Shown here: positions 12,895-20,661 of the stretch, piece by piece
Position numbering within the stretch: position 1 is the stretch's first letter
Layout: every line of letters begins with the position of its first letter
Assembly (NCBI GenBank): GCA_029856365.1
Contig: JAHQWW010000001.1
Location: forward strand, 90,568-154,567
Source: Candidatus Hodarchaeota archaeon
GTDB lineage: Archaea; Asgardarchaeota; Heimdallarchaeia; Hodarchaeales; Hodarchaeaceae
Reading direction: 5' to 3'
DNA: 64,000 bases
Program-made: the position numbers and the translations under genes
The notes under the pieces: generated by a model
What the model saw: the letters and a program-made list of their open reading frames with translations, nothing else
Database searches by the model: none
Told to the model about the DNA's origin: nothing

Positions 12895-13695
12895 TCACCT
12901 TTTTTGGAAAATCAGGGCATAATGGTGATGAATATTTGGCACAAAGGAATATGGATACCCATAAGGCCGTAAAGTTTTTTGGTTCTGCAACCAAATGCGT
13001 TCCCCCAAGAATTTGTAATCCTCCCTTAAATTAAGGGCCAAATTAAAAGCTAATGGGTTAATTTCACCTTTATCACGAATATTTTGAACGAAAATCACTA
13101 AATGGCCACGTTCTTGTAAATAATCTTTAATCTGCTTAAAGAAAGAGACTAATTCTAAGAGAAAAAGTTCCTGTTCCTCAATCATCCCTAAATCTTTAGG
13201 ATGTTCTCCGTATTGGAGATCTAATCCTTTTTGTAAACGTTCTTGTTGATTATAATCTTTTTTTTTCTTTAATATTCGCCAATATGGGGGTGAAGTAATA
13301 CAAAGAGAAAATTTTTTCACATTTGTCATAAACGTTTGGATTACTTCACGTGCGTCTCCTTGATAAACAGGAAGGTTTGTACGAGATCGAGCTGTCTTTG
13401 CATACTTCCCATATAGTTCTATTCCGACTCCTTCTCGTCCACACTCATCACAAGCAACTAGAGTTGATCCTGTACCTACAAAAGGATCTAGTACACTATC
13501 ACCAGGTTTAGTAAAGAATTCGATGAATTCTCGAATCATTGGAGGAGGGAATGATGCTGGATGTAAGTCTATTTCATGCGAAATATCACTAGGTTTTCCA
13601 TCAGCAATGAACCATGATTTCGTAAAGCGAATCCATTGTCGTCCTGTGAGAGCATTGAGCTTGTTACGGGGGTCAATCTGTGGTTTTTCGTCCAT
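12895..13695 (-). CDS. Amino-methyltransferase (N4C/N6A DNA MTase family; SPPY suggests m4C)
   Basis: HPASFP, motif I DPFVGTGST before motif IV TSPPYW. Confidence 0.85.
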   Translation of the reverse strand: MDEKPQIDPRNKLNALTGRQWIRFTKSWFIADGKPSDISHEIDLHPASFPPPMIREFIEFFTKPGDSVLDPFVGTGSTLVACDECGREGVGIELYGKYAKTARSRTNLPVYQGDAREVIQTFMTNVKKFSLCITSPPYWRILKKKKDYNQQERLQKGLDLQYGEHPKDLGMIEEQELFLLELVSFFKQIKDYLQERGHLVIFVQNIRDKGEINPLAFNLALNLREDYKFLGERIWLQNQKTLRPYGYPYSFVPNIHHHYALIFQKR

Positions 13696-13790
13696 TTTTA
13701 ACCATCTTTACACATTTGGGGTCTTGCTTAAAAATATTTAAACCTTTCAGTGTTTTTTATCTCAATTATACTATCGGATGTTCTTGTGTC

Positions 13791-14438
13791 ATGAAACTCC
13801 AATGTCTTGTTTTTGATGTAGACGGAACTCTTGTTGACAACACAATTGCTATTATCCGCTTATTTCAGGATATTGTGAAAAAATATCTTGGTAAAGAAAT
13901 GTCAGATCAGGATGTCCTTTCACTTTGGGGTCCTCCAGGGGATGAAATTTTCAAAAGTATCTTTCCTTCTGATATATTCAATCCTGCTTGGGAAGAATTC
14001 CTTCAAAGTTATCGTGAAGCTCATTCTACGACAGGATTTTTTACTAAAGATCAATTATCAGATATAAAGAATAACATTCCATATCTCACAATTTTTACAG
14101 GGAAAAGTAGAAATACCATGGCGATTACCCTGGAAAAGCTTGGTATAATCGATATTTTTGATCTTATATTGACTGGAAATGATGTGACTCGGTCAAAACC
14201 ATATCCAGACGCGTTATATCAAATTATAAGCACTTTACATTTGAATAAAAGTGAAACCCTTTTCATTGGAGACAGTCACCTTGACGTTATTGCTGGGAAA
14301 TCCGCGGGGATTAAAACTGCTGCAGCTCTGTGGGGAGCTGTTGAAACTCAAAAATTATTAGAAAGTAAACCAGATTATACTTTTGAAACTCCTCAAGAGT
14401 TTATAGACTTTGTACTCTCACCTAAAAGGTCAGTTTAA
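13791..14438 (+). CDS. HAD-family hydrolase (Gph/PpaX-like)
   Basis: FDVDGTL, KPYPD and IGDSHLD motifs; start taken at ATG 13791. Confidence 0.9.
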   Translation: MKLQCLVFDVDGTLVDNTIAIIRLFQDIVKKYLGKEMSDQDVLSLWGPPGDEIFKSIFPSDIFNPAWEEFLQSYREAHSTTGFFTKDQLSDIKNNIPYLTIFTGKSRNTMAITLEKLGIIDIFDLILTGNDVTRSKPYPDALYQIISTLHLNKSETLFIGDSHLDVIAGKSAGIKTAAALWGAVETQKLLESKPDYTFETPQEFIDFVLSPKRSV

Positions 14439-16577
14439 ATGACTTCTAGATTAATTGAAGAAATTTTTCCCGTTCGTGAGATTAGTGAGCTGGCGATTCC
14501 AGAGCGAAGTAGTTACAAACCAATCTATCAAATTTCAAAATGGTTTGCCCGACGTGCCTCTTCCACATTTAGAGCAATATTGTTAGGATCCATTCTTCCA
14601 TCTTCAGGCGATCTTATGAATAATTTTTACATTGAACATAATTTTTGTGATTTTACAGTTATTGATCCTTTTATGGGAGGAGGTACAACAATTATCGAAG
14701 GCCTTCGATTGGGATTGAATTGCGTAGGCATTGATATTAACCCAGTTGCTTGGTTCATTACGAAAACAGAAGCTGAATTGGTTGATTTAGGAGAACTTAA
14801 GAATTGGATCATGGATTGCGAAGAAAAAATCAAAGCTCAAATCAAAAGATGGTACGTGACTGATTGCCCAGTATGTAAATCCCAAGCTGATATTATTTAT
14901 GCACATTGGGTCAAATTAGTACCCTGTGAGGTTTGTAAAAGCCAGATTTCATTATTCAGAAACTTTATAGTTGCAGTGAAAGGAGAGATAACCTCAATTT
15001 TATGTCCCTCATGTAACACTGTTTTTGAGAACTTAGGTTCTGTTCCAACTGTAATAAGCTGTCCAGAATGCCTGTTCCAGTTTGATCCCCTAAAAGGAAA
15101 TCGCATTGGGCGCAATAGTTGTAGATGTTTCAACTGTGGTTCTTTAACCAATATTCTTGACACACTCAAAAGGAATCAACAAATTCTCCCAAGTAAATTA
15201 TACGCTATAGAAGGATTCTGTCCAAATTGTGCTAGTAACGCTGATTTACAGTTCCCTCTTAAAAATACTAGATTTAAGTTTGTCAAGGGAGTATCTAAAG
15301 CAGATATTGATCTTTTTATAGAAGCAAAAGAGCAATGGCGACGTTTTTCATCAAAATCTTTGTGGCCAAAAGAATACATTCCTTTAGGAGTGGCTACTAA
15401 GACTTTGTATAATCATAATTACAAAAAGTGGGTAGAATTGTTCAATAGTCGACAATTATTAGCTCTCACAATGATTCTCGATTATATACATAAGATTCCG
15501 TATGTTATTTACCAAGAAATGTTTTTGGCTGCATTTATAAACCTCTTAAATCATAATAATGTCTTCACACGGTATTCTCCCAAAGGTCAGAAAGTTGAAG
15601 GCATTTTTGCTAGGCATGATTTTCACCCACTTTCCACATTTGCCGAGAACAATGTTTGGGGAACAAGATATGGAAGAGGAACTTGGGAAAAATGTCTAAA
15701 ACGCCTTCTGAAAGGAAAGGAGTATAACCATTCTCCTTACAATTATGTTCGATTTCTTTCTCCTAATGGAAAACCTAGCAAAAAAAAATCTTTTTCTGGA
15801 AAAATAGACGGAAAAATAACTACTGACTCCAGTAAAACTTTTCCATCAGCTGAACACAATTTACTATTACTTTGCAAAGATTCGGAGGATCTTAAAGAAC
15901 TTTCACTATCTGTTGATCTCATTATTTCGGATCCACCTTATGCAGATAATGTAAATTATTCTGAATTATCAGATTTTTTTTATGTGTGGCTTCGTTTGGT
16001 ACTTAAAAGTAGATATCAGTGGTTTTCAGCAAAAGAAACACCAAAGGATGCCGAAGCTATCATAAGCCAGAATAGATCATTAAATTATTATGATAAATTG
16101 ATAAGTATATTTAAGGCAGCAAAAGCCAGATTAAAGTCAAAAGGGTTGTTTATCTTCACTTTTCACCATTCAGATGAAGAAATATGGTACAAACTAGCTG
16201 ATGTTATAATTCAGACCGGATTTCAAGTAATCAGGACTTACCCAATCCCTAGTGAAGCTCGAAATGTGTTGAATATTCAGAAAAAGAAAGCCATTGCCTT
16301 TGATCTGATAATCGTTTGTGGTGTAAACATACAGAAAAGTCAATCGAAAATCACTTTAGAGAAATTTGTGAAAATAGTTAAAGAGCAATACAAAGAACAG
16401 CTAGAAACCTTCATGGAAGCAAATATTAAAGTCAGGGGTTTCGATAACTTAGCAATCTACTTTGGTATTCTTCTTGAGTTGGGGTCTCAATTCAATGTTA
16501 TAAGCTATTCAGGCCGTAACCTTACTCAAAAAGAAATTTGGGATTCTTGTTACAACATAGTGACTCCTTCAAGATAA
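14439..16577 (+). CDS. DUF1156/COG1743-like adenine-specific DNA methyltransferase with Zn ribbons
   Basis: KWFARR, DPFMGGGT, six CxxC pairs, SDPPYADNVNYSELSDFFYVW, FTFHH. Confidence 0.85.
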   Translation: MTSRLIEEIFPVREISELAIPERSSYKPIYQISKWFARRASSTFRAILLGSILPSSGDLMNNFYIEHNFCDFTVIDPFMGGGTTIIEGLRLGLNCVGIDINPVAWFITKTEAELVDLGELKNWIMDCEEKIKAQIKRWYVTDCPVCKSQADIIYAHWVKLVPCEVCKSQISLFRNFIVAVKGEITSILCPSCNTVFENLGSVPTVISCPECLFQFDPLKGNRIGRNSCRCFNCGSLTNILDTLKRNQQILPSKLYAIEGFCPNCASNADLQFPLKNTRFKFVKGVSKADIDLFIEAKEQWRRFSSKSLWPKEYIPLGVATKTLYNHNYKKWVELFNSRQLLALTMILDYIHKIPYVIYQEMFLAAFINLLNHNNVFTRYSPKGQKVEGIFARHDFHPLSTFAENNVWGTRYGRGTWEKCLKRLLKGKEYNHSPYNYVRFLSPNGKPSKKKSFSGKIDGKITTDSSKTFPSAEHNLLLLCKDSEDLKELSLSVDLIISDPPYADNVNYSELSDFFYVWLRLVLKSRYQWFSAKETPKDAEAIISQNRSLNYYDKLISIFKAAKARLKSKGLFIFTFHHSDEEIWYKLADVIIQTGFQVIRTYPIPSEARNVLNIQKKKAIAFDLIIVCGVNIQKSQSKITLEKFVKIVKEQYKEQLETFMEANIKVRGFDNLAIYFGILLELGSQFNVISYSGRNLTQKEIWDSCYNIVTPSR

Positions 16578-16596
16578 GAGGCAAGATGGATCTGAA

Positions 16597-17364
16597 ATGG
16601 TAAATGATTCAAAATATGAACTCATAATTGGAAACGTTCTTGAAACTTTACCATTGAAAGCTAAAGAAAGACTTTTTAATCTTATCATTGCTGATCCTCC
16701 TTTTGGAATTTCGTTCAACAAATCTAGTCACGAATATGGATCTGAGGAGTATGACCTTTATGAGGACAATTTTACTCCAGAATCTTACTTTGAATTTTCT
16801 AAAAAATGGATCCAAACCTGTTACGACTCTTTGACAACGAATGGGAGTTTATACATCATTTCTGGTTGGACCAACCTTCAATATATTCTGAATGCTATAA
16901 AACAATCTAAATTTCATGTTTTAAATCATGCAATATGGCACTTCTCGTGGGGGGTTTATACAAAAAGACGATATGTGACAAGTCATTATCACATTCTTTT
17001 ATTGGTAAAAAACAAGAAAAAATATCAGTTCTACAAACAGAAGCATTATGATGAAGACGTATTCTATTGGCCTGAATATAATCGGGGAAATGATCCCCAT
17101 CGCATAAAGGGACATCCATGTCAATTGCCCATTCTCTTATTAGAAAAATTAATTCTTACCTCAAGCTCACCTGGAGACCTTGTTGGAGATGTTTTTTCTG
17201 GAAGTGGAGGTACAATCTTAGCAGCGCGCTTGACTGGCCGTGATGTGGCGGGTTTCGAAATTAGAAAAGAATATAAAAGTATTATTCACCAGAAAGCCCG
17301 ATTTGGAGAGTCAGTCTCCCCTCAAGGGAAACAATCTACTCTGGAGAGGTTTTTAAAAGAATGA
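16597..17364 (+). CDS. Beta-class site-specific DNA methyltransferase with a C-terminal PIP-box-like motif
   Basis: Motif IV DPPF, then HPCQLP, then motif I DVFSGSG; C-terminus QSTLERFL. Confidence 0.88.
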   Translation: MVNDSKYELIIGNVLETLPLKAKERLFNLIIADPPFGISFNKSSHEYGSEEYDLYEDNFTPESYFEFSKKWIQTCYDSLTTNGSLYIISGWTNLQYILNAIKQSKFHVLNHAIWHFSWGVYTKRRYVTSHYHILLLVKNKKKYQFYKQKHYDEDVFYWPEYNRGNDPHRIKGHPCQLPILLLEKLILTSSSPGDLVGDVFSGSGGTILAARLTGRDVAGFEIRKEYKSIIHQKARFGESVSPQGKQSTLERFLKE

Positions 17365-17506
17365 TTCGAATTTATTGCAAATTTATAAAAAGAATTCAGA
17401 TATAAAGCCTGTAAATGATCAAGTAGGAGCATTGAGATCAAAATTAATAATTTTTCATTTTCTATATGTTCTTATAGTGGAACAGCTGAAAGGAATAATG
17501 ATAACA

Positions 17507-18457
17507 ATGGTTCAAGAAACAGATTTGGCAATCATTGGGGGAGGTCCAGCTGGCTTAACAGCTGCCATTTACACGGCTAGAATGGGTTTAAAGACCACTG
17601 TATTTGAAGCTGAGGCCATTGGAGGTGTCGCGAGAACAACAGAAAAGATAGAAAACTATCCTGGTTTTCTTTCGATTACTGGTCCAGAATTAGTAGATAA
17701 AATGAAAGTTCAAGCAGAACATTGCGGAGCAAACATTATTCTCGATACAGTGGGATCAATTGACCGTGCTGAAATGATTGTAAACACTTCAAGAGACCAA
17801 TGGAAAACGAAGGCAGTAATTATTGCTACAGGATCCAAACGTCGCAAACTTGGGCTTTCAAATGAAAAAGAATTAGAAGAATCTGGATTATCATACTGTG
17901 CTGTCTGTGATGGGCCATTACACCGAGGAAAAATCGTTGCTCTTGTTGGAGGTGGAAGTACTGCAGCACATGATGCCATTTATTTGGCGGGCGTTGCAAG
18001 AAAAGTTTTCTTGATTCACGAAGAGGATAAACTCGATGTTGATGAAGATCTTACAAATCAAGTGTTCTCATACAAAGAACTTGAACCAATGTTCAATAGC
18101 ACAATTGAAGAAGCTATATCTAAACACAATAGTCTAAGAAAGTTAGTAATTCGAAATCATAAAACAAATGAAATTTCAGAAATCCGAGTAAAAGCACTTT
18201 TCGTTGCGATCGGAGAAGATCCTTTCAAGCTAGCAACACTCACAGGTATTGAAACAGATGGTTCTGGTAGTATTAAAGTAAATGATGACCAAGCAACAAA
18301 TATTGAGGGCATCTATGCTGCGGGTGACGTTACAGGAGGGATTAAACAAATTGGAACTGCAGTGGGCGAGGGGGTTGTTGCTGCAATGAAAGCTGGGTTC
18401 TTTGTCAAAAGAAAAAAACGGTTGGAGAAAAAAATGGAGGAGAATAGTGTTAATTAA
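17507..18457 (+). CDS. trxB: Thioredoxin reductase-like FAD-dependent disulfide oxidoreductase
   Basis: IIGGGPAGL, ENYPG, CAVCDG, YAAGDV; start probably 17498 or 17507. Confidence 0.88.
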   Translation: MVQETDLAIIGGGPAGLTAAIYTARMGLKTTVFEAEAIGGVARTTEKIENYPGFLSITGPELVDKMKVQAEHCGANIILDTVGSIDRAEMIVNTSRDQWKTKAVIIATGSKRRKLGLSNEKELEESGLSYCAVCDGPLHRGKIVALVGGGSTAAHDAIYLAGVARKVFLIHEEDKLDVDEDLTNQVFSYKELEPMFNSTIEEAISKHNSLRKLVIRNHKTNEISEIRVKALFVAIGEDPFKLATLTGIETDGSGSIKVNDDQATNIEGIYAAGDVTGGIKQIGTAVGEGVVAAMKAGFFVKRKKRLEKKMEENSVN

Positions 18458-18588
18458 AAACACTTAAAATTCTTAATAATGGCATTAAAAAGAAATCTGA
18501 ACACCAGCTGGTTTCTATAAAAATCCGACCTATAAAATCCCAAGAAATGAAAAATGGGAAAATAACTGAATCTTTTGTTGAGGAATAA

Positions 18589-18930
18589 ATGATGAGAAGT
18601 GCATTTCCTAATATCATTACTTCACTTCCAAGGGTAGATATCTCCTTGGAAGGCGTAAAGGGGTGGATTGCTCAAGGAAAAGACTTTCAGATTGTGTTCT
18701 TTGAGATAGAACCAGTAGGGATCCTTCCTCCACACAGTCATTCTGCCCAATGGGGGATAGTTATAGAAGGAGAAATGTCGTTAACAATCGCAGGGGAAAC
18801 CAGAAAATACACTAAAGGAGACAGCTACTATATTCCCGAGGGTGTTGTACATCAAGCAGAGTTCCATACCCAATTTCGTGCTCTAGATTTTTTTGCAGAA
18901 CCAGAGAGATACAAGAAAAAAAACGAATAA
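18589..18930 (+). CDS. Cupin domain protein
   Basis: PPHSHSAQWG...GDSYYIPEGVVH. Confidence 0.85.
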   Translation: MMRSAFPNIITSLPRVDISLEGVKGWIAQGKDFQIVFFEIEPVGILPPHSHSAQWGIVIEGEMSLTIAGETRKYTKGDSYYIPEGVVHQAEFHTQFRALDFFAEPERYKKKNE

Positions 18931-18960
18931 CGTTTTCAAGGATATTAGTAAGAAATAGTG

Positions 18961-20661
18961 CTAAATATTAGATGAGGGGAGGATTTCACAGTCATAATAT
19001 TGAAGGATAAGTTCATTTAACACTTGAATAGAATCCTTTTTTGAAGTTTGGTCTTCTGTTATTTTCTTTGCTAGTTGGACAATTTGTTGAAATATAGGGT
19101 CTTTGAAATCAGGTTTTTTAAGGGGGAGTCGTCGAAGATTACGGATTGAGATTGCATTGGTGTATTTTGAACCCAAATTGAATTGACTTTGATAAAACCA
19201 ACGGTAGAGAGAAGAATTGAGAACAGAAAGAATGTAATATAATAAATCAGGATTGTTGGTGTATTCTGATACTAATTTCAGGCTATAGACGTTTTGGGTT
19301 GTCCAGTAATTGTCTGAATCATATGCAGCGCAAAGATAAGGTTTAATTTTTTGAACAACAATCTTGGGTGAGCGATAAATGGACGGATCTTTCTTGGATC
19401 GAAATTTAATTGTGGGGTCGATGAAATGTGTTGTTTTGATCGAAAATGCCTCAAAATCATCCCCAGTCAAGATAGGTTGAGTATGATGTGAAGTAGAGTC
19501 CTTCTGAATCAACATGTTGGTCTTTAAATCCTTTTCAGATAAAGATTTGTAACATTTTGCACAAATAATTTGAGGCTTTCTACTCGATAAAGGCACCCAT
19601 TCTGAGCAATTTGAGCAGAACATGATTCCACCACGTTTGGAAAGTTCCTCCCCCCTTTGAACCACAAGAAAATGAGCCAATGGACTGGAATTTTCATAAA
19701 TAAGCCGTATTAATTGTTGAATTTGTGAATCAAAATCTCTTGTAAAGATGTAATCAATATTGTTTAAATAAGAAGATTGAGGAATATGGTTCTTGTCATC
19801 AACAAGAATAATGTGGTTTGAAGGAATTACTTTTTTAAATAATCCAATTAAAGAAATAAATTCTTGGGTGACATCTTTGAAAAGACCATGAAAATTTATT
19901 AAAAGGATCTGAAAATTAGTTACGAGAAATTTCCTGAGATAAATATATTGATTAGATCGTGCGACATTTTTTGGTAGGAGATAAGCTAACATGCCTCTGT
20001 TTGGGGTCAATAAATTGGCAGCTTGATAAACAAATAATGAAAATGTATTGAGATTTCTCTTTGGACTTTTTGGTTTAAACTTATAATAATAGTGTTCCCT
20101 TTGATTTTGGGTTAATTTTCCTCCCCATGGGGGATTCCCAAGAATAATATCGAATCCTTTTGTAGCAGGAGGAAGATTGACCCAATTAGATATTGTACTC
20201 TTTAAGAAATCCCCAATAATAATGTTAGAACTTAAAGTCTTATTTACAGAGGCATGCATTGATTTTGGAACAACTGCGATAAGATTCTTGCGACAACTTG
20301 CAACTACATTGGAATCAATTTCCATTCCAAACAGATTAGATAATAAAATCTCTAAAATTATATCATCTTTATTTGATTTTTTTACTCCTAATTTTTGATT
20401 AATTTCTTCTTTAATTGAGATAATAGTCATTAAACACGCTCGTAAGAATACACCGTCGCCTGCTGCACCATCAAGGATTTTAACCTCTATTAAAATTTCT
20501 TTTAAGTATTGAATAATTGATAAATCGTTCGTATCCAATATTTCCTCAAGAGATGTGTACGTAGAAGACGTGAGGGAATTCAACTGTTTTGTCAAATATT
20601 GATTGATTGCTATTTCTGTCATTGATTTCGCTAGAAGGGGTGGGGTAAAAAAAGCTCCCAA
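18961..20661 (-). CDS. Gamma-class N6-adenine DNA methyltransferase (TaqI/Eco57I-like) with TRD and a CxxC-CxxC insertion, no nuclease domain
   Basis: GAFFTP, LDGAAGDGVFL, GNPPW, C-terminal LSVLNS...LRRLP. Confidence 0.85.
   Translation of the reverse strand: MGAFFTPPLLAKSMTEIAINQYLTKQLNSLTSSTYTSLEEILDTNDLSIIQYLKEILIEVKILDGAAGDGVFLRACLMTIISIKEEINQKLGVKKSNKDDIILEILLSNLFGMEIDSNVVASCRKNLIAVVPKSMHASVNKTLSSNIIIGDFLKSTISNWVNLPPATKGFDIILGNPPWGGKLTQNQREHYYYKFKPKSPKRNLNTFSLFVYQAANLLTPNRGMLAYLLPKNVARSNQYIYLRKFLVTNFQILLINFHGLFKDVTQEFISLIGLFKKVIPSNHIILVDDKNHIPQSSYLNNIDYIFTRDFDSQIQQLIRLIYENSSPLAHFLVVQRGEELSKRGGIMFCSNCSEWVPLSSRKPQIICAKCYKSLSEKDLKTNMLIQKDSTSHHTQPILTGDDFEAFSIKTTHFIDPTIKFRSKKDPSIYRSPKIVVQKIKPYLCAAYDSDNYWTTQNVYSLKLVSEYTNNPDLLYYILSVLNSSLYRWFYQSQFNLGSKYTNAISIRNLRRLPLKKPDFKDPIFQQIVQLAKKITEDQTSKKDSIQVLNELILQYYDCEILPSSNI

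Follow-up and report, generated by a model that had tools for sequence, protein, structure and literature searches.

The DNA analysed here (the window) is a 64,000-nucleotide stretch of contig JAHQWW010000001.1 from a Candidatus Hodarchaeota archaeon (assembly GCA_029856365.1). It contains a gene for a 255-aa DNA methyltransferase whose C-terminus carries a peptide resembling the PCNA-interacting protein (PIP) box, by which proteins dock onto the sliding clamp PCNA. The coordinates of this gene, its motifs and the related genes discussed below are collected in Table 1.

A beta-class methyltransferase ending in a PIP-like peptide

The 255-aa protein matched the Pfam family PF01555 (N6_N4_Mtase) with an E-value of 4.2e-39 and 135.2 bits, against a curated cut-off of 26.7, and the only other match in the Pfam scan was a sub-threshold one to PF02384. 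Since catalytic motif IV lies N-terminal to motif I, which binds S-adenosylmethionine (SAM), the motif order is that of the beta class. A first-pass annotation, made from the letters of the DNA, had placed the enzyme in this class, and both the PF01555 match and the motif order bore this out. The same annotation had supposed a probable Asgard archaeon as the host, in agreement with the names of the closest matches among those listed (Hodarchaeales, Heimdallarchaeota or Promethearchaeota). Orthologues were annotated as 'adenine-specific' by the Joint Genome Institute (JGI), and the DPPF motif together with these source annotations indicated that the enzyme is probably N6-adenine specific.

By sequence, the closest solved structures were those of CcrM (6pbd), M.BceJIV (8urk/9c3u) and M.RsrI (1eg2), with phmmer E-values of 8e-19 to 2.7e-10. 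An AlphaFold2 model built from 73 sequences reached a mean predicted local distance difference test score (pLDDT) of 79 and a predicted template modelling score (pTM) of 0.83. M1.HpyAVI was also among the nearest structures by sequence and by fold. The matches of the model to these four enzymes had Foldseek E-values of 2e-17 to 1e-13, template modelling (TM) scores of 0.6-0.77 and identities of 22-24%; those to CcrM (6pbd) and M.BceJIV (8urk/9c3u) had TM scores of 0.71-0.77.

The protein reads ...GESVSPQGKQSTLERFLKE up to its stop codon (likewise given as ...ARFGESVSPQGKQSTLERFLKE). Within this terminus QSTLERFL, from the Q246 codon (17332-17334) to the L253 codon (17353-17355), fits the canonical PIP pattern Q-x-x-[L/I/M]-x-x-[F/Y]-[F/Y/L/W]. 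The PIP-box-like motif claimed at the end of the methyltransferase in the first pass therefore corresponds exactly to this terminal peptide. In the AlphaFold2 monomer model the catalytic domain ended with a helix (residues 224-233), residues 234-248 were coil, residues 247-255 had a pLDDT below 50, and the tail of 18-19 residues was not packed on the catalytic domain. The flexible linker that had been claimed before the motif was thus upheld as coil from residue 234, although it is short (about 10 residues). An HbYX-type proteasome motif was also considered, since some orthologues end in ..YL, and was rejected: K-E follows QSTLERFL, and a conserved Leu stands three residues before the aromatic position. 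The host Cdc48, which ends in LKDYL, is likely a true HbYX case.

Table 1. Positions of the methyltransferase gene, its motifs, its island neighbours and further methyltransferases with PIP-like tails. Plain numbers are positions in the window; C numbers denote other contigs of the assembly.
Feature	Position	Strand	Remarks
DNA methyltransferase with C-terminal PIP tail	16597..17364	+	255 aa; beta-class amino-methyltransferase, PF01555
Catalytic motif IV, DPPF (residues 33-36)	16693..16704	+	D33, P34, P35, F36 invariant in 73 aligned sequences
SAM-binding motif I, FSGSGG (residues 200-205)	17194..17211	+	F200, G202, S203, G204 invariant in 73 aligned sequences
Variable unstructured linker GESVSPQGK (residues 237-245)	17305..17331	+	From alignment column entropies and AlphaFold2 coil
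PIP box QSTLERFL, predicted PCNA-docking peptide (residues 246-253)	17332..17355	+	2 residues before the stop
SPPY-type PF01555 methyltransferase, first island member	12895..13695	-	266 aa; PADLOC MTase_II 2e-38; syntenic in two complete Heimdall-group genomes
DUF1156-type methyltransferase	14439..16577	+	712 aa; PF01555, PF06634, PADLOC DUF1156_MTase; no PIP tail
Eco57I/TaqI_C-type (gamma-class) methyltransferase, fourth island member	18961..20661	-	566 aa; PF07669, PF12950; syntenic
PF01555 methyltransferase	C67:19732-20658		308 aa; tail KLTDFIE
PF01555 methyltransferase	C187:6254-7066		270 aa; tail DLKNFL
PF01555 methyltransferase	C162:11301-12371		356 aa; tail KIVLDKFFD
PF01555 methyltransferase	C104:1363-2007		264 aa; tail NLDNWLIKNEN

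Conservation of the tail in Asgard orthologues

A homologue search of 5.8 billion proteins gave 219 matches at E <=1e-10, and the best 120 of the 219, mostly from Asgard archaea, were used. All 59 full-length matches of at least 66% identity, an unselected set among the matches listed, ended in L-[D/E/x]-x-[F/Y]-[L/F/M/I]. In a 73-row Asgard alignment spanning 56-98% identity, whose more distant rows were picked for having a tail, position 249 was Leu in 72/73 rows, position 252 was F or Y in 73/73, and position 253 was L, F, M, I or Y in 71/71 rows reaching it. The linker columns 238-248 of the same alignment were highly variable, with entropies of 1.7-3.7 bits. The first-pass annotation had named conservation in close orthologues as the test on which its reading would fall, and the reading passed it, with L249, the aromatic residue at 252 and position 253 kept and the linker variable.

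We further placed the tails on a phylogeny. A scan of one genome per species yielded 80 loci with organism names, and the tails were read from DNA and mapped on a quick maximum-likelihood tree (IQ-TREE, with support from the Shimodaira-Hasegawa-like approximate likelihood ratio test, SH-aLRT). The ortholog clade (support 99) held 33 rows, 29 of them Asgard and 4 non-Asgard. The Asgard rows came from Hod, Heimdall, Hermod, Thor, Odin, Hel, Sigyn and Loki-type genomes; all 29 had a PIP-like tail, including a subclade ending in KKVQTGLDAF and Loki-lineage orthologues ending in ..KKVDLTTFL, and the core was kept in every one of these orthologues down to about 51% identity. The sister clade comprised 36 rows, with the motif in only 2.

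Other endings were seen elsewhere in the family. The non-Asgard orthologues, from Thermoplasmatota and Methanobacteriota, end in a conserved W[D/G]xPV[E/D]RRGL or in ..KAWF (L033, L034, L035 and L044), and a Thorarchaeota paralogue clade (L047-L084) within the sister clade ends in a conserved YPxAYREYLRREKE. An ending like the bacterial clamp motif QL[S/D]LF was not found in 3/4 bacterial homologues (from Kaiserbacteria and two Chromatiales); the fourth, from Ichthyobacteriaceae, ends in ..VQLKCF, at best a loose likeness to that motif.

Predicted docking on the host PCNA

The host genome has one recognisable PCNA gene (L001:1495-2364, equivalent to C46:5113-5982). Residues 1-256 of this PCNA, with a 47-row alignment, were co-folded with residues 216-255 of the methyltransferase, with 71 of the 73 alignment rows. 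The co-fold score was 0.66, versus 0.03 for the best of three controls, and it fell to 0.03 when PCNA was swapped for an unrelated protein. The score mark that the pair passed is reached by 58/80 solved complexes and 2/110 mismatched pairs, counts that are only rough here because custom alignments were used. The runs shared at least 40% of contacts, with a partner pLDDT of at least 42.

Confident contacts on the methyltransferase side were confined to residues 245-253, which read KQSTLERFL. On the PCNA side the interface consisted of residues 43, 46-50, 127-133, 207, 210, 232-233 and 249-254, which we take to be the hydrophobic pocket, the interdomain connecting loop and the C-terminal strand, that is, the canonical PIP site. 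Structure prediction with the host PCNA, which the first-pass annotation had put forward as a check, thus placed exactly residues 245-253 in this site, and the predicted docking of the methyltransferase on PCNA is well supported computationally. The host PCNA itself continues in an acidic, Trp-containing C-terminal extension of about 35 residues (..EEEEDVEGVYADEDWDEDEDEDEDWDEDEE), which was conserved in the consensus of 46 Hodarchaeales-type PCNAs. Because it directly follows the residues forming the PIP pocket, this extension might modulate client binding.

PIP-like peptides across the host genome

The genome is a 4.24-Mb assembly that is 84% complete, and the window lies on its contig C160. 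Open reading frames (ORFs) of at least 100 aa were called genome-wide (n = 3345), and a strict PIP was sought within the last 14 residues of each. Eleven ORFs had one, including the 255-aa methyltransferase. By Pfam, the others included PolB (GQVNLMEFFG; core QVNLMEFF), Fen1 (DQLALDKFF; core QLALDKFF), a Y-family polymerase (tail GQLTLLPFLNSNA; PIP QLTLLPFL), a SplB-like radical-SAM/helix-hairpin-helix (HhH) protein and a DUF72 protein; about 5 of the 11 had no evident DNA link. The host RNase HII ends in TLEEFL (KTLEEFLEDQKNGS) and a second, intein-bearing PolB in TLESFL (NPTLESFLLV), and therefore STLERFL of the methyltransferase shares its core with both. A looser core in a hydrophilic context was found in these two and in NreA (KTLDDFF), NucS (KKLDEFFNL), Hel308, Ogt and a DUF4130 protein; NucS and NreA are published archaeal PCNA clients (PMC4929162).

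The gene for the SplB-like radical-SAM/HhH protein (C199:18644-19819, ending in RRQSRIKEFFG) adjoins that for the DUF4130 protein (C199:19839-20447, ending in KKLDEFFETPS), and the PIP-like ends of both suggest that the two may form a PCNA-linked repair pair. An unexplained linkage between SplB-like genes and NreA is described in PMC4929162. Further PIP-like ends were carried by the DUF72 protein (C18:113125-113961, RRQMSLREFF), the Ogt O6-alkylguanine transferase (C161:9476-10009, KKILTEFL), a DUF6884 protein (C160:72990-73544, NPLTDFMK) and a GNAT-SCP2 acetyltransferase (C96:55485-56687, TSLRDFF); these four are candidate non-core PCNA clients. Hel308 (C171:9564-13172) and the second family-B polymerase (C200:125-2233) each contain a LAGLIDADG intein.

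Other methyltransferases with PIP-like tails in the genome

The genome is rich in methyltransferases, with 37 PF01555 and 26 PF02384 matches, and four PF01555 enzymes besides the 255-aa one end in PIP-like tails (Table 1). The loose motif was present in 9/45 methyltransferases versus 7.9% of all ORFs (Fisher p = 0.0075). In the C162 enzyme, [V/I/L]LDx[F/Y][F/L] was kept in 20/22 orthologues of at least 70% identity, and many more distant relatives were without the tail. The C187 tail was not borne out as a PIP: when representatives were searched exhaustively, no relative exceeded 51% identity, and most were halves of fusions of about 570 aa. The C187 enzyme served as the query that gave a set of 60 distant representatives of PF01555, usable as a rough negative control, and only 3 of these had the loose core. 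A 702-aa PF02384 (HsdM-like) methyltransferase (C10:17648-18583), which starts with MPEKQYQDKLHRYL.., has a strict N-terminal PIP match, QDKLHRYL, that may lie inside a folded domain.

These tails raise a broader reading, in which clamp-coupled DNA methylation would be general and ancient in Asgard archaea and several unrelated methyltransferases per genome would have gained PCNA-docking peptides independently. The candidates for it here would be the 255-aa enzyme, the four further PF01555 enzymes and possibly the HsdM-like one. We consider this generalisation rather unlikely, and put it forward tentatively.

Gene neighbourhood and inheritance

The PIP-tailed gene is a member of an island (12895-20661) in which four methyltransferases of different types are interleaved with genes for a haloacid dehalogenase (HAD) phosphatase, a thioredoxin reductase (TrxR)-like protein and a cupin. 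The DUF1156-type gene, itself preceded by the HAD phosphatase gene, ends 19 nt before the PIP-tailed gene, and the TrxR-like gene, the cupin gene and the Eco57I/TaqI_C-type methyltransferase gene follow downstream. Only the 255-aa enzyme among the four methyltransferases has a PIP tail. Two complete Heimdall-group chromosomes have the island genes around the orthologue as well, and their order differs little, the TrxR-like and cupin genes being swapped in one.

Pfam and PADLOC recognised no nuclease, helicase or specificity subunit within about 8 kb, either here or in the two complete Heimdall-group genomes. The neighbours that were recognised were the methyltransferases, the HAD, TrxR-like and cupin proteins and a beta-CASP protein, and there was in addition a 447-aa protein without assignment. 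The PADLOC scan of the island gave generic methyltransferase matches only and no defence-system partner. Exactly one orthologue, at 70-90% identity, was present in 18/21 other genomes of the genus and in 5/5 of the high-quality ones; the three genomes without an orthologue match are 71-80% complete. The single copy in 18/21 genomes, the synteny and the lack of a recognised nuclease nearby therefore form the pattern of a core, vertically inherited methyltransferase. The enzyme had been called an orphan in the first pass; this held in so far as no nuclease was recognised within about 8 kb, although a distant or unrecognised one may exist, but the enzyme shares its conserved island with three other methyltransferases.

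Weighing the function of the tail

The C-terminal tail is likely a functional PCNA-docking motif. Since it carries the docking peptide used by the host polymerases and nucleases, the methyltransferase probably methylates nascent DNA close behind the fork. The homotrimeric PCNA has a hydrophobic pocket between its interdomain connecting loop and its C-terminus, and L249, F252 and L253 of the PIP box would insert there. PCNA rings remaining on DNA that has just been replicated or repaired would keep the methyltransferase on the nascent duplex, and its sites would be re-methylated soon after fork passage. The methylation could serve an epigenetic or regulatory purpose, protection from the cell's own nucleases, or the re-marking of repair patches. 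Physical PCNA binding, replication coupling and the biological purpose of the methylation are what we infer from these predictions.

Several observations weigh against this assignment. The Gln was in its canonical position (246) in only 30/72 rows (about 40%) and stood one residue earlier in 21 others, and the final PIP position is Leu and not an aromatic residue. The four Thermoplasmatota and Methanobacteriota orthologues, at similar identity, were without the PIP motif despite having PCNA. The loose core (L-x-x-aromatic-hydrophobic) is weak evidence alone, since 7.9% of all ORFs have it among their final 10 residues. Moreover, many PIP-PCNA complexes have been solved, so that the co-fold pass may show PIP likeness and not binding by this particular copy.

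In one alternative the tail, as an amphipathic helix or a short linear motif, has another job, such as binding a non-PCNA partner, a dimer contact, a DNA contact or autoregulation, and its likeness to a PIP is coincidental. The beta-class methyltransferases CcrM and M.BceJIV act as dimers. Strict conservation covers the three hydrophobic positions and not the Gln, the loose core is common at C-termini, and the co-fold could simply reproduce solved PIP complexes that the predictor has learned. In addition, the ..PVERRGL and ..KAWF ends of the non-Asgard orthologues and the ..AYREYLRREKE end of the Thor paralogues imply that tails in this family may serve family-specific roles. However, the tail of 18-19 residues was predicted to be unstructured and unpacked, its TLExFL core also ends the host RNase HII and second PolB, similar tails occur on methyltransferases of the genome that are unrelated to it, and the score collapsed to 0.03 with an unrelated protein in place of PCNA. 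We therefore regard another job for the tail as quite unlikely. That the motif arose by chance and has no function is extremely improbable. About 5/11 strict C-terminal matches lie on proteins without an evident DNA link, which speaks for coincidence, but the core was present in every Asgard orthologue to about 51% identity behind a linker that was not conserved, and even the loose core was present in only 3/60 distant PF01555 representatives; the conservation pattern effectively refutes this explanation.

A further alternative accepts that docking on PCNA is real and concerns its purpose: the island would belong to a restriction-type defence whose nucleases are elsewhere or unrecognised, and the enzyme would serve self-protection instead of epigenetic or regulatory maintenance. 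Clamp docking would shorten the time that nascent DNA stays unprotected. The abundance of PF01555 (37) and PF02384 (26) matches fits such a defence, as do the best matches of the 255-aa protein to PADLOC type II methyltransferase profiles (1.3e-43) and its upstream neighbour, a DUF1156-type methyltransferase of the kind found in defence systems. Against this, neither this genome nor the two complete relatives showed a recognisable nuclease, helicase or specificity subunit within about 8 kb. The gene occurs once per genome, keeps its synteny and is present almost throughout the genus (70-90% identity), unlike restriction-modification genes, which are typically patchy, and HAD, TrxR-like and cupin genes stand between the methyltransferases of the island. 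Self-protection is, on balance, an unlikely purpose. PCNA docking of a core methyltransferase that would act behind the fork is the reading we prefer.

Implications of a probable clamp-docked methyltransferase

To our knowledge, PCNA-directed DNA methylation is known only from eukaryotes, from DNMT1 for 5-methylcytosine (5mC) and from Tetrahymena AMT6 for N6-methyladenine (6mA). The enzyme described here would be a PIP-box client that carries a prokaryotic-type DNA methyltransferase as its cargo, and would bring this class of enzyme into the archaeal PCNA interactome. With a 255-aa enzyme and a homotrimeric PCNA as its parts, the system is a simple one in which to relate clamp tethering to the hemimethylated window, to restriction avoidance and to strand discrimination in repair. 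If clamp-coupled methylation were general in Asgard archaea, post-replicative methylation would be organised from PCNA there, as it is for eukaryotic 5mC and 6mA, so that maintenance methylation coupled to replication would, in its logic, be older than eukaryotes.

Comparison with known systems

Among solved enzymes, CcrM (6pbd), M.BceJIV (8urk/9c3u) and M.RsrI (1eg2) resemble the 255-aa protein in fold and in the order of motifs (Foldseek E 2e-17 to 3e-14, TM 0.69-0.77), and a DPP[Y/F] motif is common to all. CcrM, like the 255-aa enzyme, is a conserved chromosomal methyltransferase without a partner nuclease. However, the three are only 22-24% identical to it, the C-terminal DNA-binding domain of CcrM is missing in the 255-aa enzyme, and the PCNA-type docking peptide of the latter is in none of them.

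The eukaryotic systems resemble the predicted one in that a PIP box takes a DNA methyltransferase to PCNA. In structure, AMT1/MT-A70 enzymes are distantly related to the beta class, and MTA1 and METTL3 (MT-A70) were weak, remote fold matches of our model at 13-15% identity. DNMT1 is a C5 enzyme and AMT6 an MT-A70 family subunit with its PIP in an internal loop, whereas the 255-aa enzyme is non-orthologous to them and has a terminal PIP; the Pfam scan, with PF01555 and sub-threshold PF02384 as its only matches, gave no homology to DNMT1 (C5, PF00145) or MT-A70. The parallel with DNMT1 drawn in the first pass therefore stands for PIP-box recruitment as an analogy only and does not extend to homology, because the 255-aa protein, an amino-methyltransferase of PF01555, is no C5 enzyme. 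The first-pass reading of a replication-coupled maintenance methylase is thus supported in part, for the predicted docking, and maintenance in the DNMT1 sense is hypothetical. DNMT1 is recruited to PCNA by its PIP box (Jimenji et al. 2019, cited in PMC11761967). In the Tetrahymena AMT6 complex, a PIP box leads to PCNA and gives a quicker start to the re-methylation of hemimethylated 6mA sites after replication (PMC11761967).

The closest functional counterparts are the archaeal C-terminal PIP clients, namely PolB, Fen1, RNase HII, the RFC large subunit, the Y-family polymerase, NucS and NreA (reviewed in PMC3504372 and PMC4929162). In the text consulted, neither review lists a DNA methyltransferase among archaeal PCNA partners: words beginning with 'methyl' were absent from PMC3504372, and 'methyltransferase' occurred once in PMC4929162. 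Nor did the full-text literature searched, which left most subscription journals outside its coverage, contain a report of an archaeal PCNA-binding DNA methyltransferase or of any prokaryotic one tethered to the sliding clamp. The methyltransferase differs from these clients in its cargo, a DNA methyltransferase domain, and in a Gln that is less conserved than in the polymerases and Fen1. Like them, it carries its peptide at the extreme C-terminus, with the pattern Q-x-x-L-x-x-aromatic-hydrophobic and an unstructured tail; its core is common to the host RNase HII, second PolB, Fen1, NucS and NreA, and its docking site is predicted to be the same. Together, the 255-aa enzyme showed every feature of archaeal C-terminal PIP clients that can be tested in silico.

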